Source: Bacteroidales bacterium
GTDB taxonomy: Bacteria > Bacteroidota > Bacteroidia > Bacteroidales > UBA12077
Assembly: GCA_019038645.1 (NCBI GenBank)
Contig: JAHOYT010000011.1
Span: forward strand, 63,909-127,908
Reading direction: 5' to 3'
DNA length: 64,000 nt
Made by a program: the position numbers and the translations under genes. This document shows, in pieces, positions 36,883 to 55,463 of this stretch; the stretch's first letter is position 1; the number at the start of each line of letters is the position of its first letter. Under the pieces are notes generated by a model. It had not been told where the DNA came from. It did no database searches and worked only from the letters and a program-made list of their open reading frames with translations.

Positions 36883-37350
36883 ATGCCAGAAATTAAAGAA
36901 TTAGTTACGGGTTTAGCTGACAAACATGGAAGAACAAGAGAAAGCTTGCTTCCGATTTTGCAAGGTATTATTACTGAGGAAAGATTCATTTCAGATGATG
37001 CATTGACAGAGGTCGCAAGAGAGTTGGACATATCTGCCGCACTTGTTTATGGTACTGCAACATTCTATTCGTTCCTTGATACAAAGCCCCGCGGGAAATT
37101 TGTAATTCGTATTTGCAGAACAATTACATGCGATATGAAAGGGAAAAAGCAAATTATTAATACCCTGGAAGATCTACTTAAAATCAGGGTTGGTGAAACA
37201 ACAAAAGATAAGAATTTTACTCTTTTAGAGACTAACTGCCTTGGTTGGTGTCATAAAGGTCCGGCAATGCTTATTAATGATGATGTGTTCACTGAACTTA
37301 CTGAGGATAAAATTACCGAAATAATCCGTGATTATATGAGAAATATTTAA
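36883..37350 (+). CDS. [FeFe]-hydrogenase NuoE-like [2Fe-2S] subunit (HydC/HndA-like)
   Basis: Thioredoxin-like 2Fe-2S pattern C(RTITC)...C(LGWC); 155 aa; first gene of the hydrogenase operon. Confidence 0.85.
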   Translation: MPEIKELVTGLADKHGRTRESLLPILQGIITEERFISDDALTEVARELDISAALVYGTATFYSFLDTKPRGKFVIRICRTITCDMKGKKQIINTLEDLLKIRVGETTKDKNFTLLETNCLGWCHKGPAMLINDDVFTELTEDKITEIIRDYMRNI

Positions 37351-37379
37351 TTATCAATTTGTTAAAGGAGATTATAATT

Positions 37380-38543
37380 ATGCCAGATAAAAAATTAAAA
37401 AGAGTAGACATTATTTTTAACGAAGATTGTAACTGTAATGAAGTACTCACGAATAGTCTGAAGAAATCGAAAGATGAAATCCTTAAAGAGATTTTAGATT
37501 CAGGATTAAGAGGCCGTGGTGGAGCAGGTTTTCCTACAGGATTAAAATGGAAATTTGCTTCTCAGGAAGCTGAGAAAGAAAAATATGTTGTTTGTAACGC
37601 CGATGAAGGTGAGCCTGGAACATTTAAAGATCGTGAAATTTTAACAAGAGTTCCATTAAAGGTATTCGGAGGTATGGCTATTTGTGCTAAAGTTATTGGT
37701 GCAAAACAAGGTTACGTATATTTAAGGGGTGAGTACCAATTCTTAAAAGCCGATTTAGAAAAATCTTTGGAAGAGTTTCATGCTGTTCTGAAGGATATAG
37801 GGTTTGATTTTCAGATTAAAATTACCATGGGTGCAGGAGCTTATATTTGTGGCGAAGAAAGCGCTTTATTTGAATCAATGGAAGGTAACCGGGGTGAACC
37901 AAGAAATAAACCACCTTACCCAACAGTTTCAGGTTTTAGAAATAAACCAACTGTTATCAATAATGTAGAAACTCTTGTCGATTCATTTATGATTTGCAGA
38001 ATTGGGTCACAAAAGTTTATGGAGCTGGGAACTACTGACTCAAGAGGTTCAAAGCTATTCTCAATCTCAGGAGATACACCAATAGCAGGAATATATGAAT
38101 TGGAGTTAGGTATGGCATTAGAAGATTTCGTTGAGGAGTTTGGTGATGGCGATACTAAAGCTGTTCAGGTTGGTGGTGCATCAGGTTTTTGTGTACCAAG
38201 AAAAAAATTCAAAGAAACTATTATTGGATTTGAAGGTGTTCCAACAGGAGGTTCTATGATGCTTTTCAATAGCTCCAGATCAATGTATAACGTATTAAAG
38301 AATTATGTTGAATTTTTTGAAGAAGAATCTTGTGGTCAATGTACTCCTTGCCGTGTAGGTTGCCAACAACTTAAAAAGGGAATTGAAGCTATTAAGAAAG
38401 GCGAAAAATCAGCTTCTTATCTTAAAACATTACAAAAACTGGCAGAAACAATGAAAGTTAGTTCTAAATGTGGTTTAGGTCAGTCAGTTGCTAATTCATT
38501 TTCTTCAATTGTTGACAACTTTAAAGAAGAAATGATTTACTAA
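37380..38543 (+). CDS. [FeFe]-hydrogenase NuoF-like NAD(H)/FMN subunit (HydB-like, minimal form)
   Basis: GRGGAGFPTGLKW (FMN), GAGAYICGEESAL, ESCGQCTPCRVG (N3 cluster). ATG at 37380 follows AAGGAG. No N- or C-terminal ferredoxin domains. Confidence 0.88.
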   Translation: MPDKKLKRVDIIFNEDCNCNEVLTNSLKKSKDEILKEILDSGLRGRGGAGFPTGLKWKFASQEAEKEKYVVCNADEGEPGTFKDREILTRVPLKVFGGMAICAKVIGAKQGYVYLRGEYQFLKADLEKSLEEFHAVLKDIGFDFQIKITMGAGAYICGEESALFESMEGNRGEPRNKPPYPTVSGFRNKPTVINNVETLVDSFMICRIGSQKFMELGTTDSRGSKLFSISGDTPIAGIYELELGMALEDFVEEFGDGDTKAVQVGGASGFCVPRKKFKETIIGFEGVPTGGSMMLFNSSRSMYNVLKNYVEFFEEESCGQCTPCRVGCQQLKKGIEAIKKGEKSASYLKTLQKLAETMKVSSKCGLGQSVANSFSSIVDNFKEEMIY

Positions 38544-38582
38544 AGAAATTATTGTAATAAAAATAAAATTAAGAATAAAAAC

Positions 38583-40373
38583 ATGGCTAATACTGTAAAT
38601 ATAAAAATAGACGGAATCGATGTAAGTGTTGAGGCTGGTAAAACTGTTCTTGATGCTGCAAAGAAATTAAATATACATATTCCAACTCTTTGTTATCACG
38701 AAGATTTATGTGTAGCCGGAAATTGCAGAGTATGCGTAGTTGAACAGGAAGGTGTTAACAACCTTGTTGCTTCATGTGCAATACCTGCTCAGAAAGGAAT
38801 GGTTATTCATACAAATTCACATAAAGTAAGAAACGCACGTAGACACGTAGTTGAATTATTGCTTTCAGAACATAATGCTGATTGTACAAAGTGTTATAAA
38901 AATACAAAATGTGAATTACAGGATCTGGCAAGCGAAATGGTAATCAATGAGCATATGTTTATGGATCTTGTACCTGATAAGAACTATACAACAGACAAGC
39001 AGTCACCTTCAATTATTAAAGATGATAGCAAATGTATTCGTTGTCAACGTTGTGTTAGAACTTGTCATGATTTGCAGCATGTAAGTGCATTGGGAGTCGC
39101 TTACAAAGGCGATCATATGAAGATTTCTACTTTCTTCGAACATCCTATGTATGAAGTGGTTTGTACTAATTGCGGTCAGTGTGTAAACCGTTGTCCAACA
39201 GGAGCATTAATCGAGAAAAATTACCTTGATGAGGTTTGGGACGCTATTTATGATGAAGATAAACATGTTATAGTGCAAACTGCTCCGGCTACCCGTATTG
39301 CGTTAGGTGAAGATTTGGGTATGGAATCAGGTAGTATTGTAACTGGTAAAATGGCTGCATCTCTAAGGCGTCTGGGCTTTGATTCAGTACTTGACACTGA
39401 CTTTTCTGCAGATTTAACAATCATGGAGGAAGGAACTGAATTACTAACAAGACTTAAAAAAGCATTAGTTGATAAAGATACAAGCGTTAAGTTACCAATG
39501 TTCACTTCTTGCTCACCTGGTTGGGTAAAGTTTTTAGAACATACATATCCTGATTATCTCGATAACCTTTCTACTTGTAAATCTCCCCAGCAAATGTTTG
39601 GTGCACTTGCAAAAACATATTATGCCGAAAAGAAAGGTCTTGACCCCGATAAAATTGTTTGTGTATCTATTATGCCTTGTACTGCTAAGAAATTTGAAGC
39701 TAACAGACCGGAAATGAGAGATAGTGGTTATCAGGATGTTGATATGGGTCTTACAACAAGAGAATTAGCTGTAATGATTAAACAAGCCGGAATTGATTTT
39801 CAGGAACTTCCTGATGAAAAATTCGATAGTTTAATGGGAGAATCATCAGGTGCAGCCGTAATTTTTGGTGCTACAGGTGGTGTTATGGAAGCTGCGCTTC
39901 GTACAGCTTATGAAATTGTAACCGGAAGAGAGGTTCCATTCAAAAACTTAAATATTACTGCTGTACGTGGTATGGAAGGTGTTCGTGAAGCAAATATTAA
40001 GCTCGAAAATGTTTTACCAGCCTGGAGCTTTTTGGAGGGCGTAGAGTTAAAAACAGCTGTTGCTCATGGTTTAACGAATGCGCACCAAATAATGGAAGCT
40101 ATTCATAAAGGCGAAGCAAATTATCACTTTGTCGAGGTAATGGGATGTCCGGGTGGATGTATTGGTGGTGGAGGCCAACCAATTCCTACAACTCCCGAGA
40201 TTCGAAGAAAACGAGCTGAAGCAATTTATCGCGAAGATGAGGGAATGGCTGTACGTAAGTCTCATGAAAATCCTGAAGTTCAGCAAATTTATAGGGAATT
40301 CCTTGGAGAACCTCTCAGTGATAAATCACATTGGTTATTACATACTCATTACGTTAAAAGAAAGAGAGTTTAA
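38583..40373 (+). CDS. hydA: [FeFe]-hydrogenase catalytic subunit (HydA, M3-type)
   Basis: N-terminal 2Fe-2S and F-cluster Cys motifs. H-cluster motifs FTSCSPGW (variant of TSCCPxW), MPCTAKKFE and EVMGCPGGCIGGGGQP. Confidence 0.92.
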   Translation: MANTVNIKIDGIDVSVEAGKTVLDAAKKLNIHIPTLCYHEDLCVAGNCRVCVVEQEGVNNLVASCAIPAQKGMVIHTNSHKVRNARRHVVELLLSEHNADCTKCYKNTKCELQDLASEMVINEHMFMDLVPDKNYTTDKQSPSIIKDDSKCIRCQRCVRTCHDLQHVSALGVAYKGDHMKISTFFEHPMYEVVCTNCGQCVNRCPTGALIEKNYLDEVWDAIYDEDKHVIVQTAPATRIALGEDLGMESGSIVTGKMAASLRRLGFDSVLDTDFSADLTIMEEGTELLTRLKKALVDKDTSVKLPMFTSCSPGWVKFLEHTYPDYLDNLSTCKSPQQMFGALAKTYYAEKKGLDPDKIVCVSIMPCTAKKFEANRPEMRDSGYQDVDMGLTTRELAVMIKQAGIDFQELPDEKFDSLMGESSGAAVIFGATGGVMEAALRTAYEIVTGREVPFKNLNITAVRGMEGVREANIKLENVLPAWSFLEGVELKTAVAHGLTNAHQIMEAIHKGEANYHFVEVMGCPGGCIGGGGQPIPTTPEIRRKRAEAIYREDEGMAVRKSHENPEVQQIYREFLGEPLSDKSHWLLHTHYVKRKRV

Positions 40374-41154: not shown

Positions 41155-42657
41155 ATGAAATTACCTCGATCATATTATAATTTGCTATCCTTTATTGGTA
41201 CTACAATAGCAGGAATAAGCCTGTTCATGATTCTTTATCTTTTTGCTGTTTCTTTCTTTTTTGAAAGAACCAGCTCCTATTTAGGGTTATTCATTTATAT
41301 TATTGTACCTGTTTTTATGGTATTTGGCCTTATCTTAATCCCCCTGGGGATGTCAATCGAGATAAGAAAAAGAAAAAAGAAAGGCAAAGAATATCTTCAA
41401 AAAGCGTGGCCTGTAATTGACCTGAATATTTCCAGGTATCGTAATGCTATTATCATATTCTCAATTGGCTCATTATTCTTTCTTTTTTTAACTGGAGTTG
41501 GTAGTTATGAGGCATTTCACTATACAGAATCAGTCGAATTTTGCGGTAAATTGTGCCATGAAGTTATGGAACCTGAGTATGTAGCTTACCAAAATTCATC
41601 ACATTCACGGGTAGCTTGTGTTGATTGTCATGTTGGTTCCGGTGCAGATTGGTATATGAGATCAAAACTATCTGGTTTAAGACAGGTGTATGCCGTGTTA
41701 ACCGATAATTTTTCCCGCCCTATTGAAACTCCGGTAAAAGATTTAAGGCCGGCCAGAGAAACATGTGAAGAATGCCACTGGCCTCTGAAGTTCTATGAAA
41801 GGCGATTAAGACATTCTAAGCATTATTTAACCGACAGTCTGAATACAGAATTGAACATTAGTATGCAAATGAAAATTGGTCCAACTCATAGTGCTCTTGG
41901 TCTGACTGAAGGTATTCACTGGCACATAAATCCTGATGTGAAAATCGAGTATATATCAAGAAATGATGACAGGGAAAATATACCATGGGTAAAATATACA
42001 AATCTTGCCGATAAAACAGTAACAATTTATGAAGATATCAGGGAGCCTTTGAAGCAAGTGAATATCGAATCGTCTGTTACCAGAGAAATGGATTGTATTG
42101 ACTGTCACAACAGACCATCACATCATTATTTAACACCACAGGAATTTGTTGACAATGCTATTGCTTCGGGAGTTATTCCTCAGGATTTACCTTTTATTAA
42201 GAAAATTGCAATGGATTTATTTATTGAACCTTTTGAGAGAAGTGATACTGCTCTTGTTGTAATAGAAAATCATATAAATGAATTTTATAAGAGTTACAAT
42301 TCATTGAATAAAGAGCTTCTTACTAACAAAATAGACAATGCAATAAATGGATTGCAAGAAGGTTTTAGTACGAATATTTTTCCCGAAATGGGAGTTAGCT
42401 GGGATGAATATCCAGATCATATAGGACACAAGACATATAACGGTTGCTTTAGATGTCATAGTGACAATCATGTTAGTAAAGAGGGTCAAACAATAAGTAA
42501 AGATTGTAATCTTTGTCATACCATTGTAATGCAGGGAAGAGTAGGAGAAGAATCAATAGCTTTTGTTAATGATTCTTTGGAATTTATACATCCTGTAGAT
42601 ATAGAAGGTGTTTGGAAAGAAGAACTATGTATGGAGTGCCACAGGTACTTATATTAA
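41155..42657 (+). CDS. Inner-membrane multihaem cytochrome c with NapC/NirT-like region (ImcH-like), 7 haem motifs
   Basis: Three N-terminal TM helices. Motifs: CGKLCH (CxxxCH), CVDCH, CEECH, CIDCH, CFRCH, CNLCH, CMECH. The NapC/NirT-like context FCGKLCHEVMEPEYVAYQNSSHSRVACVDCHVG is present. Confidence 0.75.
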   Translation: MKLPRSYYNLLSFIGTTIAGISLFMILYLFAVSFFFERTSSYLGLFIYIIVPVFMVFGLILIPLGMSIEIRKRKKKGKEYLQKAWPVIDLNISRYRNAIIIFSIGSLFFLFLTGVGSYEAFHYTESVEFCGKLCHEVMEPEYVAYQNSSHSRVACVDCHVGSGADWYMRSKLSGLRQVYAVLTDNFSRPIETPVKDLRPARETCEECHWPLKFYERRLRHSKHYLTDSLNTELNISMQMKIGPTHSALGLTEGIHWHINPDVKIEYISRNDDRENIPWVKYTNLADKTVTIYEDIREPLKQVNIESSVTREMDCIDCHNRPSHHYLTPQEFVDNAIASGVIPQDLPFIKKIAMDLFIEPFERSDTALVVIENHINEFYKSYNSLNKELLTNKIDNAINGLQEGFSTNIFPEMGVSWDEYPDHIGHKTYNGCFRCHSDNHVSKEGQTISKDCNLCHTIVMQGRVGEESIAFVNDSLEFIHPVDIEGVWKEELCMECHRYLY

Positions 42658-42739: not shown

Positions 42740-43261
42740 TTATTGTGTTAAAGGGTTTGGATGAGCGATTTTTGCTACAGCCTCTTCATAATTGAATTCT
42801 TTATAAGTAGGACTCTCTTCATTATGACATGTTACACAAACAGCTTCTACAGGTAAAATCAGGCCATTATCTAAACTCTTTTGCTGATCTTTCATAACAG
42901 ACATAGACTTATATTTACTTCCTGGTCCATGGCATGATTCACATGAAACACCTTCTTTGGCAGTAATTGTTAACATTAGATCTTCGCTGGCTGCATGATA
43001 AGTTGAGTGACACTTTAAACATTTTGGATCATTTTGTGGATCATCTGAGAATTTTTTTGATTCTTCGCTTGCCAATGTTTCATATGCTTTTGCATGAAGT
43101 TTACTTTTCCATGTGTCGTATTGTTTACCTTTTGCCTCTTTATTATGGCACATTTTACATTTCGCAGCACCAATATATTCATAATCTTGTGCCTTTGACA
43201 GACTAACTACAAGAAAAACAGAACAGGCAATTAATAATAATTTTTTTAAATTCATAATCAT
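42740..43261 (-). CDS. Periplasmic tetrahaem cytochrome c (c554-like family)
   Basis: Signal peptide plus CKMCH, CLKCH, CESCH (in GVSCESCHGPGS) and CVTCH. Confidence 0.8.
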   Translation of the reverse strand: MIMNLKKLLLIACSVFLVVSLSKAQDYEYIGAAKCKMCHNKEAKGKQYDTWKSKLHAKAYETLASEESKKFSDDPQNDPKCLKCHSTYHAASEDLMLTITAKEGVSCESCHGPGSKYKSMSVMKDQQKSLDNGLILPVEAVCVTCHNEESPTYKEFNYEEAVAKIAHPNPLTQ

Positions 43262-43536: not shown

Positions 43537-44157
43537 TTATTCCGCTTCATGGTATCCTGTTATGATACTTTTAAAGTTTTTTAGAGGATGCTTACCGATA
43601 GTAATTACGTATAAATGAATTATTAAAAAAATCAGGATAAAAAATCCTGCAATCGAATGGAAGAAAGTAGTTAATCTAATTCCACTCATATCATAGAATT
43701 TTTCAATAATCATTTCAGGAAATAATAATGCAACACCTGTAATTATAACCACAGGAACTAACAGATACATTGTCCCAAAGTAAGATACCTTTTGTAGTGG
43801 GTTAAACTTTTCTTCCTCAGAAATATGAAATGGTTTTGGTTCTCCTTTCAAATATCCAAAAACATAATATTTTCCTTGTTTATATAATCTGTCAATTAAA
43901 CCTTTTAATTTAAGTTTATAATGCTTATTATTTCCGGTAAGAATACCTGCAATGAAAAAGAAAGAATAACTTATTATAATAACAACACCAATAAAATTAT
44001 GCAAAGAAACAGCAGAATTAAATCTTATTAATGGAGATTCTAAATTTGTAAATTGCATACTAATACCTGTAATACCTAAAAGTATTATGCTAATGGCATT
44101 AATTACATGCCATATTCTTAACCAAACAGGATAAAGATATAATCTATTATTGCTCAT
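43537..44157 (-). CDS. Dihaem b-type cytochrome membrane subunit (FdnI/HydC/PhsC-like)
   Basis: 206 aa, 4 TM helices with conserved His residues (RIWHVINA, SLHNFIG, FFHSIAG, IIHLYV). Starts 2 nt after the upstream 7-haem gene. Confidence 0.75.
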   Translation of the reverse strand: MSNNRLYLYPVWLRIWHVINAISIILLGITGISMQFTNLESPLIRFNSAVSLHNFIGVVIIISYSFFFIAGILTGNNKHYKLKLKGLIDRLYKQGKYYVFGYLKGEPKPFHISEEEKFNPLQKVSYFGTMYLLVPVVIITGVALLFPEMIIEKFYDMSGIRLTTFFHSIAGFFILIFLIIHLYVITIGKHPLKNFKSIITGYHEAE

Positions 44158-44158
44158 T

Positions 44159-45085
44159 TTATTTACGTTTAATAATTCTTAAAAATGTATGTAAAAATAT
44201 TCCAGATAATGTAAGGCCAAAAATAATTAAACTAATTAAATTGACATAACTATTTCTATTTGCCCCAATCATATACGCATCATTAAGAATAAATGAATTA
44301 TAAAAGTTAAATTCTGCACGATCTTCTTTTGATTGATGTTTATATAGCTTGTCACGTAAGGATGAATTTGATGAATGACATTCAACGCAATTACGTACAG
44401 CCTGTTCTTTTGGAACAATATGGTGAACCGCATCAGCAGTGTCTGTAACTGCAGTATGACATTCTATGCAACGGACTCTTGAAAAATGTAAAGCCTGATT
44501 TGGTAGCCAATCGTGGGTAGCAATCAATTGAGGATTTTCGTGGGTAGTATATATCTGATATTTATCAACATCATTATGACAGTTTAAACACCTGTTGTTA
44601 TTATATTGAACCAGTTCAGCCATATCAGACTTCACTAATTTATTTGAATGAGGATCATGGCACAACTCACAATTAAAAACATCACCAAAAGCTTCCATAT
44701 GAACGCTTTTTTTCACTTCCGAAGCAATTACCTCAAAAGCATGGCAATCCACACACGTCAGTTTTGGTTCAATTTTTAATTCACAATTATGAGGATAGGT
44801 GTTATACTCCTCGGAATGACAATCTGAACACGCAAGTGCGCTATGTTCTCCATGAAGATAACTAATTGAATCTATAACTAAATAAGGATTCATTAATTTA
44901 CGTTCAGTCAGTTCTGTATTTTCATTATAAAATGAATAATATTTGTGCCCATGGCATTTAAGACAAGTACTATTTGATTCAGGCATTTCAAGTATTTCCT
45001 CATTTTCCTGAGCTTGAACAATAAAATGAAAAGAAAAGAGAAATAAACTGATAATAATCAACTTCGTTGGTAAAACAATTTTCAT
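44159..45085 (-). CDS. Heptahaem cytochrome c with C-terminal membrane anchor
   Basis: Signal peptide. CLKCH, CSDCH, CVDCH, CELCH, CLNCH, CIECH, CVECH. C-terminal TM helix (LISLIIFGLTLSGIFLHTFL). Confidence 0.8.
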   Translation of the reverse strand: MKIVLPTKLIIISLFLFSFHFIVQAQENEEILEMPESNSTCLKCHGHKYYSFYNENTELTERKLMNPYLVIDSISYLHGEHSALACSDCHSEEYNTYPHNCELKIEPKLTCVDCHAFEVIASEVKKSVHMEAFGDVFNCELCHDPHSNKLVKSDMAELVQYNNNRCLNCHNDVDKYQIYTTHENPQLIATHDWLPNQALHFSRVRCIECHTAVTDTADAVHHIVPKEQAVRNCVECHSSNSSLRDKLYKHQSKEDRAEFNFYNSFILNDAYMIGANRNSYVNLISLIIFGLTLSGIFLHTFLRIIKRK

Positions 45086-45407: not shown

Positions 45408-48194
45408 ATGATTTTCAATCAATTTATTCCAAAAAGAAGCATTTGTTTATTTTCAGTTTTATTTTTTTTACAAATATCATTTACATATAGCCAGTCTGAT
45501 GAAGACTGTTTGACGTGCCATGAAGATACTGAACTAACGTCAGAAAAAAATGGAACTACAAAATCAATGTATGTCGATGGGACTATTTTAAAATATTCAG
45601 TTCATAAATCTGTTTCCTGTGCTTCATGTCATAAAGATGCTGATGTAAATGATTTTCCACATGATGAAAATTTAAGTAAAGTTAATTGTGGTGAATGCCA
45701 TGTAAATGCAGATGATAACTTTTATAAAGGGATTCATGGTCTGGCATTGAAATTAGATGAACCACATGCACCTACTTGTAAAGAATGTCATGGTGAGCAT
45801 TTAATATTACATCAGTCAAATCCAAAGTCTTTAACTTATAAAATGAATATCCCGGTTTTATGCGGTAAATGTCATAAAGAAGGAGCTCCTGTTGCGCGTG
45901 CTTATAAAATTACACAACATAATATACTGGATAATTATAGTCAGAGTATTCATGGATTAGGATTATTTAACAGAGGGCTAATTGTTACTGCAACCTGTAA
46001 CAACTGCCATGGTAACCATTTAATTTTATCACATACCAGTCCAAATTCTACTATTTCTGTTAATAATATTGCTGAAACATGTATGCAATGTCATGCCCGA
46101 ATCGAAGATGTTCATACTAAGGTTATAAAAGGTGAATTGTGGGAAGAATCTCCCGGAGCAATTCCAGCTTGTACTAACTGTCATCCTCCTCATAAGATTA
46201 ATACTCAGAACATTATGGCAACCATGTCAGACAAGTCTTGTTTACGTTGTCATAGCGATGATGACATTCACAAGATTGTTGATGGGGAAAAAATATCATT
46301 AAAAGTTGACAGAGCAGATCTGGATAGTTATGAACATAAAAATATAACATGTGTAAAATGTCATACTGATGTTTCACCATATTTAGAAAGACCATGTGAA
46401 ACCGCCATGGATGTAGATTGTGATAATTGCCATGCGGAAGTATCAAGCATATATTTTGCCAGCGGACATGGACAGGCATATTTCAGAAAAGATGAAAATG
46501 CCCCATATTGCACTGATTGTCATGGAAGCCACAAAGTAAGGTCCAGATATGATGAAGAAGCACAGACATACAGAACAAATATACCAAGCCTATGTGGTGA
46601 GTGCCATCAAAAAGATAATAAGGCAATTGAAGGTAAGGGATTAAAAGAACTTGATGCTTATTTGGATTATTCATCAAGCGTGCATGGTAAAAGTCTGGAA
46701 GAAAAAGGATTAACAATAAGTGCTGTTTGTATCGACTGCCATTCAACCCATAATATGCTAAAAGAATCTGATGAAAACTCGTCAGTTCATCCAAAAAATC
46801 TTCCTTCAACATGTGCAAAATGCCACAAACCAATATCTGACGAATATTTAGCAAGCGAACATTCAATTGAACATAATGATCCTGATAAAAAATTCCCGAC
46901 TTGCGCTAACTGTCATTCCGCACATGTTATTTCAAATATAGATCAGGATGAGTTTATGACAGAGATAACTCATCAATGTGGTTCTTGTCATGAAGATTTA
47001 TCGGAAACGTATTTAGATACGTATCATGGTAAGGCTTATCAGTTAGGTTATTTAGAAACTGCAAGATGTTCTGATTGCCATGGAGCTCATAAAATTTTAG
47101 ATGTGAATAATCCTGATTCCGAAGTTGGGATTCATAATATTGTTGCAACCTGTCAAAAATGCCATCCTGATGCAAACGAGAGATTTACAGGCTATTTAAC
47201 ACACGCAACTCATAACGATAAAAGTAAATATCCGGCACTATATTATGCTTTTTGGGCAATGACATTTTTACTTGTTGGTGTTTTTGGATTTTACGGAATT
47301 CATACTCTTTTATGGATTCCAAGGTCTATAATAGAGAGAAGAAAGGAAAAACATGTAAAACCAGAAGGGAAAATAAAATATATCAGGCGATTTGAATATA
47401 GTCAAAGAATCACACACCTTTTTGTAATTATGAGCTTTATTCTCCTTGCAATTACCGGGATGATAATAAAATTTGCACATATGGATTGGGCAAAATTTTT
47501 AGTAAAAGCAATTGGTGGTGCTTATAATGCAAGTATAATTCACAGGTTTGGTGCTGTAATAACGTTTGGTTACTTCGCTTATCATCTTTATTCCCTGATC
47601 AAATTAAAGATTAAACGAAAAAAATCATTTAGGAAATTCATTTTTGGCAGTAATTCATTAATGTTTAATATGCAGGATTGGAGAGATTTGTGGGCAACAT
47701 TAAAATGGTTTGTAGGGAAAAGTCCACGTCCAAATTACGGAAGATGGACATATTGGGAAAAATTTGACTATATGGCTGTTTTTTGGGGAGTAGCTGTTAT
47801 TGGATTTTCCGGATTAATGTTATGGTTTCCTGAGTTTTTCTCAAAGGCGTTACCAGGATGGGTTATTAATGTAGTTCAGATTATTCATAGTGATGAAGCT
47901 TTACTGGCAACAGGTTTTATCTTTACGGTTCACTTTTTTCATACTCATTTCCGCCCTGAAGCTTTTCCAATGGATACTGTTATTTTTACAGGACTTGTTC
48001 CGTTAGAAAATTTTAAAAAGGAAAGACCAAAAGAATATAATGAACTTGTGGAATCTGGTCGTTTGGAAGAACTTGTAGTTGAAAAAGAAATTACAAAATG
48101 GAAATTAAAACTTGTTAAAGCATTTGGATTCTTTTTCGTAGGAATTGGAATTACGTTGGTTATTCTTATAATATATTCTTTACTATCCGGGTAA
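45408..48194 (+). CDS. 19-haem cytochrome c fused to a C-terminal dihaem cytochrome b membrane domain (CbcL-like architecture)
   Basis: 19 CxxCH motifs counted in residues 34-585. Then about 5 TM helices with FdnI/PhsC-like His pattern (RITHLFVI, IIHRFGA, IIHSDEA, TVHFFHTH). Confidence 0.8.
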   Translation: MIFNQFIPKRSICLFSVLFFLQISFTYSQSDEDCLTCHEDTELTSEKNGTTKSMYVDGTILKYSVHKSVSCASCHKDADVNDFPHDENLSKVNCGECHVNADDNFYKGIHGLALKLDEPHAPTCKECHGEHLILHQSNPKSLTYKMNIPVLCGKCHKEGAPVARAYKITQHNILDNYSQSIHGLGLFNRGLIVTATCNNCHGNHLILSHTSPNSTISVNNIAETCMQCHARIEDVHTKVIKGELWEESPGAIPACTNCHPPHKINTQNIMATMSDKSCLRCHSDDDIHKIVDGEKISLKVDRADLDSYEHKNITCVKCHTDVSPYLERPCETAMDVDCDNCHAEVSSIYFASGHGQAYFRKDENAPYCTDCHGSHKVRSRYDEEAQTYRTNIPSLCGECHQKDNKAIEGKGLKELDAYLDYSSSVHGKSLEEKGLTISAVCIDCHSTHNMLKESDENSSVHPKNLPSTCAKCHKPISDEYLASEHSIEHNDPDKKFPTCANCHSAHVISNIDQDEFMTEITHQCGSCHEDLSETYLDTYHGKAYQLGYLETARCSDCHGAHKILDVNNPDSEVGIHNIVATCQKCHPDANERFTGYLTHATHNDKSKYPALYYAFWAMTFLLVGVFGFYGIHTLLWIPRSIIERRKEKHVKPEGKIKYIRRFEYSQRITHLFVIMSFILLAITGMIIKFAHMDWAKFLVKAIGGAYNASIIHRFGAVITFGYFAYHLYSLIKLKIKRKKSFRKFIFGSNSLMFNMQDWRDLWATLKWFVGKSPRPNYGRWTYWEKFDYMAVFWGVAVIGFSGLMLWFPEFFSKALPGWVINVVQIIHSDEALLATGFIFTVHFFHTHFRPEAFPMDTVIFTGLVPLENFKKERPKEYNELVESGRLEELVVEKEITKWKLKLVKAFGFFFVGIGITLVILIIYSLLSG

Positions 48195-48286: not shown

Positions 48287-49153
48287 TTATTGGAATCTCA
48301 CAATAATATTAAACCCTAGTAATATTCCTTCGCTATCAAATTTGTTTGTATTCATTACATAATTCTTTTGTGCCATAATTCCCTGGTAATTTGTGGCAAA
48401 AACTTGAAAAGCATGTGTTGGAGTACTGATTTCTAATCCAAAAGCAATTCCTGGCTGAATTTCATAAGAATAATCCCGAACAGAATTGATATTTATTGGT
48501 TGATGATATTCGAACATAGCTGACATTGTACCCGTAAATTTATATCGGCCACCAACCATTACTCCGGATTTATTATTCTGATAAACACTGTCGACAGCGT
48601 TAAAATGCGAATAACTTGGGGCTAATTGTACCGATAATGCGTCGGTAAATTTTCGGGAAACAATAATTTGAGTAAAGTATGAGAAGCGATCAGTGAATTC
48701 ATAATTACCACCAAAAAATTGATCCTCTCTGGTATCAACTGTTACATTAGCATGAACTGATAATGAAACAGGCATGCTGCCGGATCTTGTTTGTTGCAGA
48801 ATTGCGTATTTACCATTAAGATCCTGGAACTTATTAGCTTTTTCTGTTCCAATTCCAATGGTTAATTTGTCGGTAATTCCGTATTGTAAACCCATTCTTA
48901 TATTTGATGCAGCATAGATTCCAAACAAATCAGTAAATCCATTATCCATTCCACCAAAACGGTGATGTATAATTAGTTCCAGTGATTTCGCAGTAGAACC
49001 TATAATTGTTTGACTTTCAATTAAGGTTGATGCTTCCCAGGGCATATAAACAGGTTTTTCTACTTTTTTTTCAGTTTCTTCCTGCGCAAATGCAATAGTG
49101 CTGGTTGCAGCAATTAATAATGTAATGAAAAATTTGAAAGTGTATTTCTTCAT
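48287..49153 (-). CDS. Small outer-membrane beta-barrel protein (resembles DUF5777-type)
   Basis: Signal peptide (..STIAFAQEE), alternating amphipathic strands, C-terminal FNIIVRFQ. 35 nt downstream of the monohaem lipoprotein gene. Confidence 0.65.
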   Translation of the reverse strand: MKKYTFKFFITLLIAATSTIAFAQEETEKKVEKPVYMPWEASTLIESQTIIGSTAKSLELIIHHRFGGMDNGFTDLFGIYAASNIRMGLQYGITDKLTIGIGTEKANKFQDLNGKYAILQQTRSGSMPVSLSVHANVTVDTREDQFFGGNYEFTDRFSYFTQIIVSRKFTDALSVQLAPSYSHFNAVDSVYQNNKSGVMVGGRYKFTGTMSAMFEYHQPININSVRDYSYEIQPGIAFGLEISTPTHAFQVFATNYQGIMAQKNYVMNTNKFDSEGILLGFNIIVRFQ

Positions 49154-49188
49154 GATTTTAAATATTTATTTACAATACTTTAATTTTA

Positions 49189-49542
49189 TTAGTTGTCTAA
49201 AGCTCCTTCTTGTATCCATTTAAGAAGATAAGCGCTTTCTTCTGGTGTAAATGGATTACTACCATGTCCTTCATTTACTTTAATATAAATTTCACTTGAT
49301 GCAGGCTCATCAGTGTTAATGTAACCTCCATCCATTAAATTGGTATATTCATTTCCGTCAGTTAAAACCGGCTTAACGTTTGCATGACAGCTGGCACATT
49401 TTTGTTCAAAAATAGGTTTTATATGTTCTGTAAAGCTAAGTCCATCAGGTACCTCAAAAACCAAAGGTTCAATTACATTATATTCACATGATGAAGTACA
49501 GATTAAAATTAATCCTAAAATAAATAATAAACTTTTTTTCAT
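49189..49542 (-). CDS. Monohaem c-type cytochrome lipoprotein (PSCyt1-like domain), paralogue 1
   Basis: Lipobox ICTSSC, single CASCH, C-terminal LLKWIQEGA. Confidence 0.7.
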   Translation of the reverse strand: MKKSLLFILGLILICTSSCEYNVIEPLVFEVPDGLSFTEHIKPIFEQKCASCHANVKPVLTDGNEYTNLMDGGYINTDEPASSEIYIKVNEGHGSNPFTPEESAYLLKWIQEGALDN

Positions 49543-49855
49543 TTTCGTATCCTTTTCTTTATTTAAAAAAGCTGTTTAGTTCACTTAAACAACTTCTTAG
49601 GCAATATTAATATATTTTTTATATTAAAACAATGTAGCTGTTTAATGCCATTTAATTATATGACGAGTTACTACTTTAATTATGATTTTGATCAGTTATA
49701 AGGTAGCCATTTTATATTAAATTAATTCTTGTTAATAATTATTTAGTAAACTCAAGTATTTGTTTTTTAGAATTTTATGTACGAAATGAAAATAACCCGT
49801 TACAATAATTAATAATATGATAAAGAATAGGAAACTATATTTTAAAATGATTTTG

Positions 49856-50242
49856 TTAGTTGTTTTCAGCCCCTTCTTCTATCCATTTAAGAAGATAAGC
49901 TAATTCTAAAGGAGTATATGGATTACTACCCGGATGACCTAAATAGACTTTAACAAATAATTCACTTGATTCAGGATCGTTAGTATTAATGTAACCACCA
50001 TTAATTAAATTATCATATGCGCTACCGGTGATTAAAACAGGATTGGTTATAGAATGACAGGATATACATTTATCCTGAAAAACAGGTTCAATTTGTGCAG
50101 AAAAACTAATAGGGTCTGCAGGATCGTCAGGGTCATCAGGTAGCTCAGGTAACTCCCTTACAATTGGTTCAACTATCTTGTATTCACACGAAGTAATAAA
50201 GATAAAAACTAATCCTAAAATAATTAATAGACTCTTTTTCAT
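49856..50242 (-). CDS. Monohaem c-type cytochrome lipoprotein, paralogue 2 (Pro/Asp-rich linker)
   Basis: Lipobox FITSC, PELPDDPDDPADP linker, single CISCH, C-terminal LLKWIEEGA. Clearly paralogous to 49189-49542. Confidence 0.7.
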   Translation of the reverse strand: MKKSLLIILGLVFIFITSCEYKIVEPIVRELPELPDDPDDPADPISFSAQIEPVFQDKCISCHSITNPVLITGSAYDNLINGGYINTNDPESSELFVKVYLGHPGSNPYTPLELAYLLKWIEEGAENN

Positions 50243-50262
50243 TCTGGTATCTTTTAAAAATA

Positions 50263-50294
50263 AAGAAGTTGCTTAGATAACTAAGCAACTTCTT
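50263..50294 (-). terminator. Hairpin between the hexahaem gene and monohaem paralogue 2 (terminator or attenuator)
   Basis: AAGAAGTTGCTTAG-ATAA-CTAAGCAACTTCTT (14 bp). A T-rich tract follows on the minus strand. A degenerate copy lies at about 49566-49600, upstream of paralogue 1. Confidence 0.6.
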
Positions 50295-50311
50295 AAATAG
50301 GTTCAGTTTTT

Positions 50312-51433
50312 TTATAATGTTGCAGCTAATGTAATAGTGTTATCTAATAAAGTGATAATGTAATCCGGGTTGTGAATTCCAAGACTCTGATCTTCTGCAA
50401 TAATTAAATAGTTAAATACACATCTTCCTAGATCTGCAGCAACAGGATTGTCGCTATATCCACCATATCCTGCGCCCATTGCATGATATCCTACAGTGTC
50501 TATGGTCTCTACATGTTCTCCTAAAGTTTCGTTCCATACTGTTTCAGTTTCGGTGTCAGGATCCAAACCTCCTAATAATGCTAATGTTCTTCCTAAGCTA
50601 GTTAATTTGCCTTCAACCTCATCCTGAATTGCTTCAAGTTTATCTTCAATGTCACTATGGCAAGTAGTACAAGCAGACTCATCCAAAGCTAATGTGTGGT
50701 TACCTTCGTTCATGTGGCAAGTAATACAATCATGACTGAATGATGCTGATGGATCGAATGCTCCTGTTGGGTATCCGGTACCTACTTCAACTCCTCCTTG
50801 AGAATTTAATATATTTCCTTGTGGTCCATGGTGTGGTCCCCAATAATGAGATAAAGGTACATCAGCTGTAGAAGTAGCACTTGGTGCGCCTGTAGGATTA
50901 CGTGATTGGTGACACTGTACACACATGTTAACATCGTCCATATCTTCAAATTCACCTGAAGCAACATCTGTATTATCAATACCTAAAATTGTTTCAGTTA
51001 CCTGATCTGTAAAAGTTAATCCCCAGTCTGTTGCATCATTGGCTGTATGAATAGGGTGGCAAGCTTTACAACTAATTGCAGATTGATCAGTTAGGGCTAA
51101 ATCAAAAATTTCATCAGCAGAAGTAAAATCCATACGAGCTAAAAATCCTTCAGTACTGTGACATCCTGAACAGTCTCCACTTCGGGAAAAATATGTTCCT
51201 AATGAATGAGCAGATTCGTTGAATTGATCAACTTTAACATCATATTCGGTACCTTCATTATGGCAAGCCATACAAACAGCAGTACCATCACCACCGGTAG
51301 CCCCATCGACGCCGTCGACTCCGGCAATACCGTCAGTACCATCAATACCATCAATACCTGCAGGTCCTTCACAAGACATGAAGATTGCTCCAAAAAGGAA
51401 CAAAATACTTAATAATTTAATTAAATTTTTCAT
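50312..51433 (-). CDS. Hexahaem cytochrome c lipoprotein with N-terminal collagen-like Gly-X-Y repeat
   Basis: Lipobox FMSC. GPAGIDGIDGTDGIAGVDGVDGATGGDGT (9 G-X-Y triplets). CMACH, CSGCH, CKACH, CVQCH, CITCH, CTTCH. Confidence 0.8.
   Translation of the reverse strand: MKNLIKLLSILFLFGAIFMSCEGPAGIDGIDGTDGIAGVDGVDGATGGDGTAVCMACHNEGTEYDVKVDQFNESAHSLGTYFSRSGDCSGCHSTEGFLARMDFTSADEIFDLALTDQSAISCKACHPIHTANDATDWGLTFTDQVTETILGIDNTDVASGEFEDMDDVNMCVQCHQSRNPTGAPSATSTADVPLSHYWGPHHGPQGNILNSQGGVEVGTGYPTGAFDPSASFSHDCITCHMNEGNHTLALDESACTTCHSDIEDKLEAIQDEVEGKLTSLGRTLALLGGLDPDTETETVWNETLGEHVETIDTVGYHAMGAGYGGYSDNPVAADLGRCVFNYLIIAEDQSLGIHNPDYIITLLDNTITLAATL
51281..51367 (-). repeat. Coding triplet repeat for the collagen-like G-X-Y tract of the hexahaem lipoprotein
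   Basis: Residues 23-51 of the CDS. This DNA repetitiveness also generates the spurious ORFs 51199-51393(-) and 51206-51412(+). Confidence 0.8.
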
Positions 51434-51578: not shown

Positions 51579-51592
51579 TTGATATATATCAA
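51579..51592. promoter_or_regulatory. Perfect FNR/CRP-type box TTGAT-N4-ATCAA
   Basis: TTGATATATATCAA, centred about 62 nt upstream of the Crp/Fnr ATG (51648) and about 152 nt from the hexahaem gene start (51433). Confidence 0.55.
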
Positions 51593-51647
51593 TAAAGAAA
51601 TTAAGATTTGTATATCTTATTATGTACTTTTCAAAACTCAAAAATTA

Positions 51648-52343
51648 ATGATGGATTTAAATGCTAAGATATCGTGCAAAAATTGTAAACACGGCTGGGG
51701 AAATTTTAAAAATTTAACCGCTAAAGAACTTGAAATAGTAAATGAAAACAGATTTCAGGCTAATTTTCAGGCCGGGGAAATAATTTTTAAACAAGGCTCT
51801 CCTGTATCAAATGCAGTTTTTTTAATAAATGGAATGGCAAAAATATATATAGAGGGTTTTGATAAGAAAAGAATGATGGTGGGTATTGCTAAACCAAAGG
51901 CTTTAATTGCCGGACCGGGTACTTTTGTTGATGATAGACATCATTATTCTGTTGCTGCATTAACTGATGTTACAGCATGTTTTATTAAAATGGATGTTCT
52001 TAAGGATTTTGTGAATACTAATGGTAAATTTGCCGAAGGATGGTTGCGGGATATAAGTCAAAAAGCATTAGGAACGTTTTATAAATTTTTAAGTCACACG
52101 CAAAAAAAAATGCATGGTCGTTTGGCCGAGACATTATTGTATTTAGCTGATGAGGTTCACAATTCAGATGATTTTACGATGCTTTTATCAAGGCAAGAAT
52201 TAGGCGAATTGTCCGGAATGGCTAAAGAAAGTGTTGTTCGGATATTGAAAGATTTAGCACAAGATAATATTATAGAAGATAAATGTCCCCATATTAAAAT
52301 CCTGAATAGGAAAAAGCTTCAAATGATTTCAAATATGGGTTAA
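51648..52343 (+). CDS. Crp/Fnr-family transcriptional regulator
   Basis: cNMP-binding-like beta-roll (FQAGEIIFKQGSPVSNAVFLINGMAKIY) and C-terminal HTH (SRQELGELSGMAKESVVRILKDL). N-terminal CKNC. ATG at 51648. Confidence 0.85.
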   Translation: MMDLNAKISCKNCKHGWGNFKNLTAKELEIVNENRFQANFQAGEIIFKQGSPVSNAVFLINGMAKIYIEGFDKKRMMVGIAKPKALIAGPGTFVDDRHHYSVAALTDVTACFIKMDVLKDFVNTNGKFAEGWLRDISQKALGTFYKFLSHTQKKMHGRLAETLLYLADEVHNSDDFTMLLSRQELGELSGMAKESVVRILKDLAQDNIIEDKCPHIKILNRKKLQMISNMG

Positions 52344-52349: not shown

Positions 52350-55300
52350 ATGTATAAAATAAAAATTAAGTTTATGAAAAAGAAAAGTATCTTTCTGTTT
52401 ACTCCTTGGTTTATGGGAGTTTTGTTTATAGTGTTTGCGATGTCAATGGCTTTTGCAACATTTTATGAAAACGATTTTGGTGCAGTTGCGGCCAAAACAT
52501 TAGTTTATAACACTAAATGGTTTGAATTGTTAATGCTTTTAATGGTAATTAATCTTACCGGACAGGTATTTCAGTTTAAGTTATACAAAAGAAAGAAACT
52601 TACTATTTTACTATTTCACGCCGCCTTTGTTTTAATGATAATTGGTGCCGGAATTACACGTTATTTTGGGTTTGAAGGCGTTGTTCATATTCGTGAAAAT
52701 GATTCTCAAAATATTTGTACTTCAACAGATCAGTATTTGCAATTTAATGTTAGTAATTTAGACGGAAATGTTCTTTTTTCCGATTCAAAGAAATTATCTA
52801 TAACATCTGTAAAACAAGAAAAATATCATCAAGATGTAAAAATAGATGATGTAGATTATTCATTAAAATTTACTAACTATTTGACTAATGCAGTAGAGTC
52901 GATAGTTAATGTTGAAAATGGAGAACCTATGGTTTCTGTTTTAATATCAAGAGGAATGATGGGACGACAAACTATATTTTTGAAAAAAGGTGAAATTAAA
53001 AATGTGGGTGGAATTATGTTTGGTTTTGGCGAAGATGATTCTGTTGATGTGAGAATTACTATTCAGGATGATGCATTCAAAATACAATCGGAATATCCCA
53101 TTAGCGAAATAAGCATGATGTCGCAAAAAGCAACTATTCATGAACAAGGTGAAGCCATTCCGTTTGAAACTATGAAAATTTACCAGGTTAAAGGTTTATC
53201 TATTGTAGCTGAAGTGTTAAGCAAAAGTGGGGTTGTTAAAGTGGTAAATGCAGATTCCAAAACAAATACAACAAATAAAAGTGCTTTGGTTTTTGAATTG
53301 GTTCACGGAAATAAATTAACTGAATTAATTCTATTGAGAGCGCCGGGAATAAATAATACTACTAGATTTATTAATGGGGAGCATTCTATTGAGGTAAGCT
53401 ATAGTTCATTAGAAGTAGAATTACCGTTTAGCTTAAAGTTGGAAGATTTTATACTGGAAAGATATCCTGGTTCAAGTAGCCCTTCATCCTATAAGAGTGA
53501 TGTTGTATTAATAGATGAAAAGGAGGGTGTAAATATGCCTTATTCTATTTATATGAATCATATATTAAAATATAAGGGTTGGAGATTTTATCAATCGTCA
53601 TACGATCAGGATGAAAGAGGAACAATTTTATCTGTGAACAGAGATTTTGCAGGAATGTTTGTTACATATGTCGGATATTTTATATTATTCTTATTTATGG
53701 TACTATCATTGATTAATAAAAATTCAGCTTTTCGAACAGTTACTAAAAACTTTTTTAGATCAACTTCAGGTAAAGTAGTCAGTTTATTATTTTTATTTCT
53801 AAGTTCTTCATTACTGGCAAGTTCTCAAAATCAGAAATTAGTAGTACCCAAATCTCTTTCCAATGAGTTTGGAAAAGTATTAGTTCAGAATCAGAAAGGA
53901 AGAACTGAACCTATTTACGCTTTAAGCAACGATATTTTAAGAAAAGTAACCAAAGAAACAGAATTCGACGGGTATTCACCAATGCAGGTGTTTTTAGGAT
54001 TCTATTTTGATTTTCATAACTGGCAAAAGGTTCCGTTAATTAAAATTTCTAATGTTGATGTAAAAAAAGCAATTGGTATTAATGGAGATTATGCTGCATT
54101 TTCAGATATTGTTGATTTGCAGGAAAATAGTTATAAATTAAAACAATATGTGGATGCTGCTTATGCAAAGCCATCAGGAGCCAGAAATAAGTTTGATAAG
54201 GAAATTATTAAAGTAGATGAGCGCTTGAATATTTGCTTCATGATTTACTCAGGTGAGTTCATGAAAATATTACCGGTTAAAGATCATTCAATGAAATGGC
54301 ATTCACCAAAAGATGCTTATACATTTGTTGCAAACGCTGATGATTCACTGTACTTAAGAAATATTGTTGGTTTATTTGCTCAGGGAGTTGATATAGCGAA
54401 TACCTCTGGTGATTATACTCAGGCTAATGAAACTTTAAAATCAATAATTAATTATCAGAGAAATTTTGCGCAATATGAATTGCCGGATACAAGAAAGGTA
54501 AATGCGGAAATACTCTATTATAAATCCAAAATTTATGATAAACTTTTCCCTTTTTATGCTTCTATTGGATTGCTTCTTTTATTTATTCTGCTTTATGGAA
54601 TAATATCTCAGAACAAAAATCTTGGACTAATAATTAAAATTTTTACAGGACTTCTTATTGTAGGTTTTGTTTTTCATACAATGGGATTGACTATTCGATG
54701 GTATGTTTCGGGCCATGCACCAATGAGTAATGGTTATGAATCAATGATTTTTATTTCCTGGGTAACTATATTGGCCGGATTCTTTTTTGGTAAGCGATCT
54801 TCATTTGTTTTGGCTGCAACATCTGTTTTAGGTGGTTTTACACTTATGGTAGCACATTTAAGTTTTATGGATCCACAAATAACAAATCTGGTTCCGGTGT
54901 TGCAATCTTATTGGTTAACAATTCACGTTTCTGTTATTACAGGTAGCTACGGATTCTTAGGTTTAGGTGCTATAATAGGAATTATTGTACTAATTCTTTA
55001 TTCAATGATCTCGGAAAGTAATAAAGCAAATATATTATCAACAATAGAAGAGCTAACAATTATTAATTACAAAGCATTGACTATTGGCTTATATCTTCTT
55101 ACTATCGGAACTTTTCTGGGAGCTATTTGGGCTAATGAATCATGGGGCAGATATTGGGGTTGGGATCCAAAAGAAACATGGTCGTTGATTACAATTATTG
55201 TTTATAGTTTTGTTATTCACTCCAGAATGATAAAGGAATTAAAAGGATTTTATGCTTTTAATGTAATTTCATTATTTGCATTCTCTTCTGTGTTAATGAC

Positions 55301-55463
55301 CTATTTCGGTGTGAATTATTATTTGTCAGGATTACACTCATATGCGGGTGGAGATCCTGTGCCTGTACCTAAGTTTGTTTATGTAAGTATTTTCCTATTA
55401 GTTTCACTATCGATATTGGCTTACCAGAGATACAGGAAAATTTTATTAACAAATACAAAATAG
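52350..55463 (+). CDS. ccsBA: Fused system II cytochrome c synthase CcsBA (ResB + CcsA)
   Basis: N-terminal ResB-like TM and periplasmic domain. C-terminal CcsA with WWD motif WGRYWGWDPKETWS and conserved His. 1037 aa. Alternative start at 52374. Confidence 0.88.
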   Translation: MYKIKIKFMKKKSIFLFTPWFMGVLFIVFAMSMAFATFYENDFGAVAAKTLVYNTKWFELLMLLMVINLTGQVFQFKLYKRKKLTILLFHAAFVLMIIGAGITRYFGFEGVVHIRENDSQNICTSTDQYLQFNVSNLDGNVLFSDSKKLSITSVKQEKYHQDVKIDDVDYSLKFTNYLTNAVESIVNVENGEPMVSVLISRGMMGRQTIFLKKGEIKNVGGIMFGFGEDDSVDVRITIQDDAFKIQSEYPISEISMMSQKATIHEQGEAIPFETMKIYQVKGLSIVAEVLSKSGVVKVVNADSKTNTTNKSALVFELVHGNKLTELILLRAPGINNTTRFINGEHSIEVSYSSLEVELPFSLKLEDFILERYPGSSSPSSYKSDVVLIDEKEGVNMPYSIYMNHILKYKGWRFYQSSYDQDERGTILSVNRDFAGMFVTYVGYFILFLFMVLSLINKNSAFRTVTKNFFRSTSGKVVSLLFLFLSSSLLASSQNQKLVVPKSLSNEFGKVLVQNQKGRTEPIYALSNDILRKVTKETEFDGYSPMQVFLGFYFDFHNWQKVPLIKISNVDVKKAIGINGDYAAFSDIVDLQENSYKLKQYVDAAYAKPSGARNKFDKEIIKVDERLNICFMIYSGEFMKILPVKDHSMKWHSPKDAYTFVANADDSLYLRNIVGLFAQGVDIANTSGDYTQANETLKSIINYQRNFAQYELPDTRKVNAEILYYKSKIYDKLFPFYASIGLLLLFILLYGIISQNKNLGLIIKIFTGLLIVGFVFHTMGLTIRWYVSGHAPMSNGYESMIFISWVTILAGFFFGKRSSFVLAATSVLGGFTLMVAHLSFMDPQITNLVPVLQSYWLTIHVSVITGSYGFLGLGAIIGIIVLILYSMISESNKANILSTIEELTIINYKALTIGLYLLTIGTFLGAIWANESWGRYWGWDPKETWSLITIIVYSFVIHSRMIKELKGFYAFNVISLFAFSSVLMTYFGVNYYLSGLHSYAGGDPVPVPKFVYVSIFLLVSLSILAYQRYRKILLTNTK

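Follow-up and report, generated by a model that had tools for sequence, protein, structure and literature searches.

The long-form CbcL-family cytochrome and its relatives

A 64,000-nucleotide window of contig JAHOYT010000011.1 (GenBank assembly GCA_019038645.1), from a Bacteroidales bacterium of the UBA12077 lineage, carries a cluster of cytochrome genes. Within it lies a gene for a single 928-residue protein in which a 19-haem cytochrome c region is joined to a dihaem cytochrome b membrane domain, flanked by genes for relatives of Geobacter ImcH and CbcBA, a small tetrahaem cytochrome, a DUF5777 beta-barrel, cytochrome lipoproteins and a cytochrome c maturation protein. The 928-residue protein is a long-form member of the CbcL/MtrH/MtoC family, an inner-membrane bc-type cytochrome of an architecture that has already been catalogued. 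The window is low in G+C (32.7%) and the sequencing run closest to it is a marine sediment metagenome.

The open reading frame (ORF) is uninterrupted across all 928 codons (positions 45408-48194, plus strand) and encodes a total of exactly 19 CxxCH motifs, all within residues 34-586. In 2000 residue shuffles such motifs arose by chance with a mean of 0.105 and a highest count of 2. The only cysteines outside the motifs are C13, in the signal peptide, and C330. Pfam matches comprise multihaem c families (c7, c3 and paired CXXCH) and PF01292 Ni_hydr_CYTB, the latter at 35.6 bits against a gathering cut-off of 30.1, and NCBIfam returns solely sub-threshold likeness to FdnI, DmsE, NrfB and NapC models. 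The AlphaFold2 (AF2) model has a mean predicted local distance difference test (pLDDT) of 71, with 80-90 in the membrane part, and a predicted template-modelling score (pTM) of 0.50-0.53; used in full for a Foldseek search, it yields E. coli FdnI (1kqf_C) as the sole significant match. The signal peptide is the least conserved region, with a column identity of 21%, and is modelled as a helix at residues 2-25. An earlier sequence-only reading had described one polypeptide joining a 19-haem cytochrome c, with CxxCH motifs at residues of about 30-590, to a dihaem cytochrome b; the ORF, the motif count and placement, and the FdnI fold bear this description out.

That the frame is an assembly or frameshift chimera of two genes, joined at about 47150-47250, is next to impossible, because hundreds of co-linear full-length homologues come from independent assemblies; no point in favour of a chimera was found and the gene holds as a single one. 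The best 120 database proteins are all 878-962 residues long and share 62-98% identity at near full coverage, the two nearest at 98% and 82%. They derive mostly from metagenome-assembled genomes (MAGs) of Bacteroidales and other Bacteroidota and, if named at all, are usually called 'cytochrome c3 family protein'; 113 carry 19 motifs and seven carry 18, four of these seven being shorter proteins that lack the first motif. A further 76 full-length co-linear ORFs from independent genomes of many phyla were aligned, 73 with exactly 19 motifs and with every one of the 38 motif cysteines 100% conserved. An identical architecture is published for Marinifilaceae bacterium SPP2 and Caldithrix abyssi DSM 13497 (Table S2 of PMC6295460). 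Logan contigs from other samples also span the junction between 46989 and 47213 (46989-47168 with 2 mismatches, 47033-47183 with 1 and 47107-47213 with 16); they are fragmentary and would alone give weak support, the homologues being the stronger evidence.

Relatives are widespread among sediment bacteria. In a scan of one genome per GTDB species, whose counts are lower bounds, at least 594 species-level genomes carry them, in many phyla that include Bacteroidota, Chlorobiota/Ignavibacteria, Calditrichota, Latescibacterota, Zixibacteria, Eisenbacteria, KSB1, Gemmatimonadota and Acidobacteriota. The b domain alone retrieves 2411 cluster representatives at E <= 0.001, 391 of them at E <= 1e-30, and the N-terminal parts of these 391 hold between 0 and 22 haem motifs, with peaks at 9 and 11.

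Homologues of CbcL/MtrH/MtoC were surveyed by Zhong and Shi (2018; PMC6295460), who reported them from 15 phyla, with 3-23 haem motifs, 416-1034 residues, mostly six transmembrane (TM) helices and conserved TM histidines. Entries in their Table S2 include 19-haem proteins of Marinifilaceae SPP2, HGW-Bacteroidetes-4, two Marinilabiliales, Salinivirgaceae, Ignavibacteria, Syntrophaceae, Gemmatimonadetes, Handelsmanbacteria and Caldithrix abyssi, together with 20-haem proteins in Elusimicrobia and Omnitrophica and one 23-haem protein. Catalogued 19-haem proteins (BAX79136.1 of SPP2, WP_006928296.1 of C. abyssi, Cabys_319, and PKP08298.1 of HGW-Bacteroidetes-4) have the same motif number and spacing, six TM helices and 913-932 residues, and the window protein differs from them in sequence only. 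Motif positions in the SPP2 protein are those of the window protein plus one throughout, and 20 close homologues (64-69% identity) share the exact SPP2 fingerprint. Because Table S2 lists the same architecture, the premise of novelty is outdated: the sequence-only reading had taken 9-haem CbcL for the only described precedent, and this fails against 19-haem six-helix proteins catalogued in 2018. Its choice of CbcL as the right relative stands, on the strength of the motif fingerprint, an intermediate with 9 haems and the catalogue of 2018.

Geobacter sulfurreducens CbcL (GSU0274) has the same N-terminal multihaem c domain followed by a six-helix HydC/FdnI-like dihaem b domain, with one histidine in each of TM1-3 and two in TM5, but it has 9 haems in 619 residues instead of 19 in 928, and the motif spacing of its c domain is unlike that of the window protein except for the last two intervals. 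The window protein shows three features that mark the family, namely a signal peptide ahead of a periplasmic multihaem c domain, a six-TM C-terminal domain and the core histidines of the HydC/FdnI-like pattern (H632, H670, H712, H827 and H842). The intermediate is the 9-haem protein P0162, which matches residues 306-926 in BLASTP (E = 4e-114) and whose motif spacing resembles that of GSU0274; several 9-haem b-domain representatives likewise have spacing near GSU0274's. Identity over the membrane domain is 39-48% with 9-haem proteins that have the CbcL motif fingerprint, and H726 of the window protein is not retained in P0162.

Modules of the c domain and ligands of the b domain

Successive haem motifs are spaced by 37, 23, 30, 28, 45, 28, 30 and 23 residues in an N-terminal module A, by 37, 23, 30, 28, 45, 28, 30 and 25 in a following module B, and then by 30 and 28. 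Residues 47-284 align with 291-530 at a score of 366, compared with 45 +/- 8 for shuffles, and the region of haem 1 (28-70) aligns with that of haem 9 (272-314) at z = 9.3. At a smaller scale, a dihaem sub-unit 'HG..C..CHG.H...NI(P/V)..C..CH' repeats with z = 13-16, and the unit at 110-158 matches residues 540-588 with z = 16.5. Because the motif spacing, the alignment of the two modules and the match of haem 1 to haem 9 agree, the large duplicated unit is an octahaem module of 244 residues, itself assembled from dihaem units. The recurring haem modules that had been noticed earlier are real and the internal duplication proposed for them is upheld; the repeat unit is not the suggested tri- or tetra-haem one.

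Relatives with 11 haems (P0123, P0128, P0139) match the window protein end to end from residue ~243 or 271 to residue 928, with 42-48% identity, and match its N-terminal part only secondarily. Their spacing (37, 23, 30, 28, 45, 28, 30, 25, 30, 28) is that of haems 9-19. Since both alignment and spacing equate these relatives with haems 9-19, the 19-haem protein is an 11-haem family member whose first eight haems have been duplicated in tandem at the N terminus. Members with 11 or 22 haems include Opitutus terrae Oter_2603, P0123 and P0132. Compared with the 11-haem members the window protein has an extra N-terminal octahaem module, whereas the 22-haem form instead possesses a complete second 11-haem unit, P0132 being an exact tandem of two such units. 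The family enlarges by whole modules, and 13-, 15- and 17-haem forms occur too.

Conservation across phyla is 97% or higher for eighteen non-motif histidines of the c domain as well as for H599 and H602, enough in number for bis-His ligation of all 19 haems. Such ligation is established experimentally for the nine haems of CbcL (PMC9129911). Cys330 lies one residue off the position that matches the invariant distal His85 of module A, and one haem may be His/Cys-ligated through it. A Foldseek search with the c-domain model gave no match at E <= 0.001, with weak hydroxylamine-oxidoreductase matches (TM-score ~0.2) that are uninterpretable, and the top PDB match for residues 277-420 is 28pb_A, an entry titled merely 'Cytochrome c'.

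The membrane domain contains six helices in the AF2 model (DSSP boundaries 609-645, 664-688, 705-737, 782-806, 817-847 and 897-927), not the five of the sequence-only reading, with one anchor helix ahead of an FdnI-like four-helix core and one behind it. Loop charges obey the positive-inside rule with the c domain outside, and the density of lysine and arginine reaches 0.39 in the loop after TM1. A profile of 63 family members matches E. coli FdnI (PDB 1KQF chain C) over positions 657-885 with E = 0.0018 and aligns H670, H712, H827 and H842 with the FdnI haem ligands H18, H57, H155 and H169; when the b domain was run against the PDB as a single sequence with phmmer, no meaningful match emerged, FdnI being reached by the family profile only. 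The Foldseek match to 1kqf_C has a probability of 1.00, a target TM-score of 0.81 and a root-mean-square deviation of 3.7 Å. All five core histidines are invariant in sets of 121 and 77 sequences. From the alignment to FdnI, H670 and H842 are the predicted axial ligands of a cytoplasmic-side haem, and H712 and H827 those of a periplasmic-side haem. With all four ligands present in a proper alignment and 1kqf_C as the top fold, the FdnI/HydC-type dihaem pattern of the sequence-only reading is confirmed.

FdnI shares the fold and the four haem-ligating histidines but has four helices and lacks a c domain, docks to FdnGH and reduces menaquinone on the cytoplasmic side in a redox loop. Assignment of the protein as the FdnI subunit of a formate dehydrogenase was rejected (TIGR01583 at 35.1 versus 115.85 bits), and no gene for a molybdopterin or iron-sulfur subunit is found in the cluster. 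A NapC/NirT/NrfH/CymA quinol dehydrogenase was likewise rejected (TIGR02161 at 17.1 versus 310.6 bits), the membrane part here being C-terminal and b-type; the NapC/NirT-like protein of the cluster is the ImcH-type neighbour of 500 residues. A place among the MtrA/DmsE decahaem proteins (TIGR03508, 69.6 versus 192.2 bits) or the c7-polymer 'nanowire' cytochromes (TIGR04257, 18.2 versus 40 bits) was rejected too, the likeness being generic to multihaem proteins.

Beyond the four ligands, H632 and H726 are invariant and H847 is present in 99% of sequences, all three in the cytoplasmic half of the membrane domain. A pattern of supernumerary histidines has been described for CbcL, with alternative haem binding as a speculated role (Joshi et al.). 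By analogy with FdnI, H632, H726 and H847 could line a quinone site. Other candidate roles for them are in a proton path or in alternative haem ligation.

The surrounding gene cluster

Table 1. Features of the bc-type cytochrome and its neighbours, in window coordinates; linkage is counted over 83 loci that carry the bc gene.
Feature	Position	Strand	Basis
ImcH-like quinol oxidase, 500 aa, three N-terminal TMs, seven haem motifs	41155..42657	+	PF03264 and NrfH-like matches; linked in 31/83
Small periplasmic c554-like tetrahaem cytochrome, candidate soluble acceptor	42740..43261	-	PF13435 (60.9 bits), four CxxCH, signal peptide; linked in 28/83
CbcBA-like pair: PhsC-like dihaem cytochrome b (43537-44157) and 7-haem cytochrome with C-terminal TM (44159-45085)	43537..45085	-	Linked in 19/83
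CbcL-family bc-type cytochrome, 928 aa, 19 c-haem sites and dihaem b membrane domain	45408..48194	+	Translation, motif count, Pfam/NCBIfam, full-length homologues
Sec-type signal peptide, residues 1-29 (K9 R10, hydrophobic core, then ...TYS/QS)	45408..45494	+	Read from sequence
Octahaem module A, residues 28-271, haems 1-8	45489..46220	+	Alignment to module B, motif spacing
Octahaem module B, residues 272-515, haems 9-16, with the lone invariant Cys330	46221..46952	+	Alignment to module A, end-to-end 11-haem relatives
Cys330, motif RPCET	46395-46397	+	Invariant in 77 homologues across phyla
Haems 17-19 and linker with invariant H599 and H602, residues 516-608	46953..47231	+	Dihaem-unit alignment, conservation
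TM helix 1, residues 609-645, periplasm to cytoplasm, invariant H632	47232..47342	+	AF2 DSSP, hydropathy, conservation, loop charge
FdnI-like four-helix dihaem b core, residues 657-885	47376..48062	+	Family profile against PDB, Foldseek, PF01292
Extra histidines H632, H726, H847	47301-47303, 47583-47585, 47946-47948	+	Conservation
TM helix 6, residues 897-927, no FdnI counterpart	48096..48188	+	AF2 DSSP, hydropathy, six TMs in catalogued homologues
DUF5777 beta-barrel	48287-49153	-	PF19089 (242.6 bits)
Two paralogous monohaem lipoproteins	49189-49542, 49856-50242	-	Motif counts, signal peptides
6-haem lipoprotein with collagen-like GxDGxDG linker	50312-51433	-	Motif count, signal peptide
Crp/Fnr-type regulator	51579-52343	+	Pfam; synteny with loci L001 and L003
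Fused ResB-CcsA (CcsBA) cytochrome c maturation protein	52350-55463	+	TIGR03144 (200.4 versus 187.6 bits); synteny with loci L001 and L003

A gene order of Crp, 6-haem protein, small protein, DUF5777, CbcA-like, CbcB-like, bc, ImcH-like, c554-like and CcsBA recurs in Bacteroidota-type loci, that of the isolate Maribellus sp. YY47 among them. Over all phyla the commonest neighbours are the ImcH-like and c554-like proteins (Table 1). The haem motifs of the ImcH-like protein lie at residues 130 (CX3CH), 155, 204, 314, 431, 451 and 492 and its TM helices within 9-118; the spacing is identical to that of the Draconibacterium sediminis ImcH homologue (Table S3 of PMC6295460). Geobacter CbcBA follows the same logic as the bc protein, a dihaem b domain with a multihaem c domain at the inner membrane, but it is made of two polypeptides with a PhsC-type b subunit. 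In the CbcBA-like pair, directly upstream of the bc gene, the PhsC-like b protein scores 171 bits with the thiosulfate reductase b-subunit model, whose cut-off is 204, and matches the fused b domain marginally (E = 0.002 over 58 residues), and the top PDB relative of the accompanying 7-haem protein is 28pb_A (E = 1e-6). Homologues of cbcBA are known from Prolixibacter, Marinilabiliales and Labilibaculum (Joshi et al., 2021). Relatives of all three Geobacter-type inner-membrane quinol oxidases (ImcH-, CbcL- and CbcBA-like) are adjacent in the window.

The DUF5777 block (48287..51433) co-occurs in 12-18 of the 83 loci with a constant gene order. Nothing relevant to DUF5777 was found in the searched literature and the protein has no PDB relative. 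The block could be a candidate outer-membrane electron conduit, hitherto undescribed; its combination of a barrel with a monohaem protein recalls a split Cyc2. The conserved cluster encodes no catalytic reductase such as a molybdopterin enzyme or NrfA. Sigma-70 promoter-like sites occur at chance level (27 compared with 21 +/- 4.7 expected), a terminator scan found none, and inverted repeats in the 322-bp divergent intergenic region are unremarkable.

Directly upstream of the cytochrome island, at 36883-40373 on the plus strand, lie three genes for a HydABC-type [FeFe] hydrogenase (NuoE-like, NuoF-like and HydA), whose presence there points to a fermenting organism for which respiration would be an optional outlet. 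A gene for an S46 peptidase adjoins the cluster. On the other side, at 56712-59079 (plus strand), a 451-residue lipoprotein with 10 CxxCH motifs and one CX4CH is followed by a two-domain rhodanese, a pairing that may point to sulfur chemistry, and a second Crp-type regulator (55826-56521) is divergent to these two genes. Locus L002 of a Bacteroidetes MAG (GCA_020444515.1, 93-8838) holds a 67%-identical homologue of the bc protein in a different setting: it has no DUF5777 cluster, and its multihaem cytochromes are interleaved with NHL-repeat/DUF5128 proteins and a cytochrome-OmpA fusion.

Proposed role and competing readings

By analogy with CbcL and FdnI, the window protein probably functions as a long-form CbcL-type menaquinol oxidase that sends electrons to the periplasm for extracellular electron transfer. 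Function has been demonstrated for Geobacter CbcL only: it serves as a menaquinol-linked oxidase at potentials below about -0.1 V, and its nine low-spin, bis-His haems (-194 mV) reduce the soluble cytochrome PpcA (PMC9129911). In the window protein, the Sec signal peptide directs residues ~30-608 into the periplasm, where the 19 CxxCH sites would bind haem covalently, with maturation by the CcsBA protein encoded 4 kb away. TM helix 1 brings the chain back to the cytoplasmic side and is followed by the FdnI-like bundle and the sixth helix. The b domain would oxidize menaquinol, with the site probably close to the cytoplasmic-side haem, as it is in FdnI, and electrons would cross the membrane through the two b haems before travelling along the 19-haem chain. 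Should the quinol site face the cytoplasm like that of FdnI, this step would conserve no energy; the low growth yields reported for CbcL-dependent growth of Geobacter would fit a non-conserving step. The next acceptors would be periplasmic or outer-membrane partners, for which the c554-like tetrahaem cytochrome, the DUF5777 barrel and the cytochrome lipoproteins are candidates, and the terminal acceptor may be extracellular or poorly soluble, such as Fe(III) or Mn(IV) oxides. The ImcH-like, CbcBA-like and CbcL-like proteins would form a set which, as in Geobacter, may serve different acceptor potentials.

Several points weigh against this assignment of a menaquinol oxidase in extracellular electron transfer. 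A literature search found no experimental work on any long-form or 19-haem member. The kinship to GSU0274 is indirect, if strong. RNA sequencing runs were sought and none is listed. Linkage to DUF5777 is confined to Bacteroidota-type loci (18 of 83); other phyla differ, and the downstream partner is not universal. Finally, sequence does not reveal which way the electrons flow, and relatives of the MtoC type are found in Fe(II) oxidizers. A paper on chitin and extracellular electron transfer and the Caldithrix genome paper do not discuss the 19-haem protein.

The competing readings keep the architecture and differ in where the electrons go. The 19 haems might form one extended chain that reaches an outer-membrane partner directly, with no diffusible shuttle. 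Linear multihaem chains advance ~0.8-1 nm per haem, which for 19 haems could give a reach of about 15-19 nm. Growth by whole modules in tandem, from 11 haems to 19 (8+11) and 22 (11+11), fits a lengthening wire, and every motif and ligand in the added module is invariant from phylum to phylum, which argues that the extra haems are under selection. We nevertheless hold a direct periplasmic wire to be unlikely: the model has a pTM of 0.50-0.53 and its c domain finds no significant structural match, 9-haem CbcL operates through soluble PpcA, and a gene for a soluble tetrahaem cytochrome is kept nearby in 28 of the 83 loci, which suggests that a shuttle is still in use. More improbable is a specific elaboration for Bacteroidota and allied phyla, a rigid 19-haem wire of at least 15 nm that docks directly on the DUF5777 barrel and the mono- and hexahaem lipoproteins as a shuttle-free route from quinol to the surface, with a His/Cys-ligated haem at Cys330 maybe acting as a redox gate.

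Alternatively, the protein might be a periplasmic electron hub or capacitor that serves soluble acceptors through reductases encoded elsewhere, without extracellular transfer. The variation of gene neighbourhoods between phyla would be in keeping with such a role, and the 10-11-haem lipoprotein and rhodanese at 56712-59079 may hint at sulfur chemistry. Against it, the conserved cluster has no catalytic reductase and includes an outer-membrane barrel and lipoprotein cytochromes, and we consider a hub rather improbable.

The reverse direction, in which the protein would act as a quinone reductase drawing electrons inward from an extracellular donor (Fe(II), a cathode or a syntrophic partner), the role suggested for MtoC, is a poor fit to the window and seems very unlikely. 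MtoC and MtrH, present in Fe(II) oxidizers, are members of this family, and Zhong and Shi (PMC6295460) saw no sequence feature that separates oxidases from reductases. The window, however, resembles that of a fermentative or anaerobic organotroph, with the [FeFe] hydrogenase and S46 peptidase adjoining the cluster, and the neighbours of the bc gene are homologues of CbcBA and of ImcH, the latter found in Fe(III) reducers only (PMC6295460 survey).

The architecture has been known since 2018, and the value of the window lies in a testable hypothesis for its role and in the uncharacterized DUF5777 module beside it. The series of 9-, 11-, 19- and 22/23-haem members is a natural experiment in the lengthening of a haem wire by module duplication, and may reveal the reach that a membrane-anchored cytochrome can attain. 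If the menaquinol oxidase assignment is true, many uncultured sediment Bacteroidota, Calditrichota, Ignavibacteria, Acidobacteriota and members of other groups carry a Geobacter-like set of ImcH-, CbcL- and CbcBA-like quinol oxidases. Their carriers may then respire minerals or electrodes, which would alter the count of fermentative sediment taxa that take part in iron and manganese cycling.

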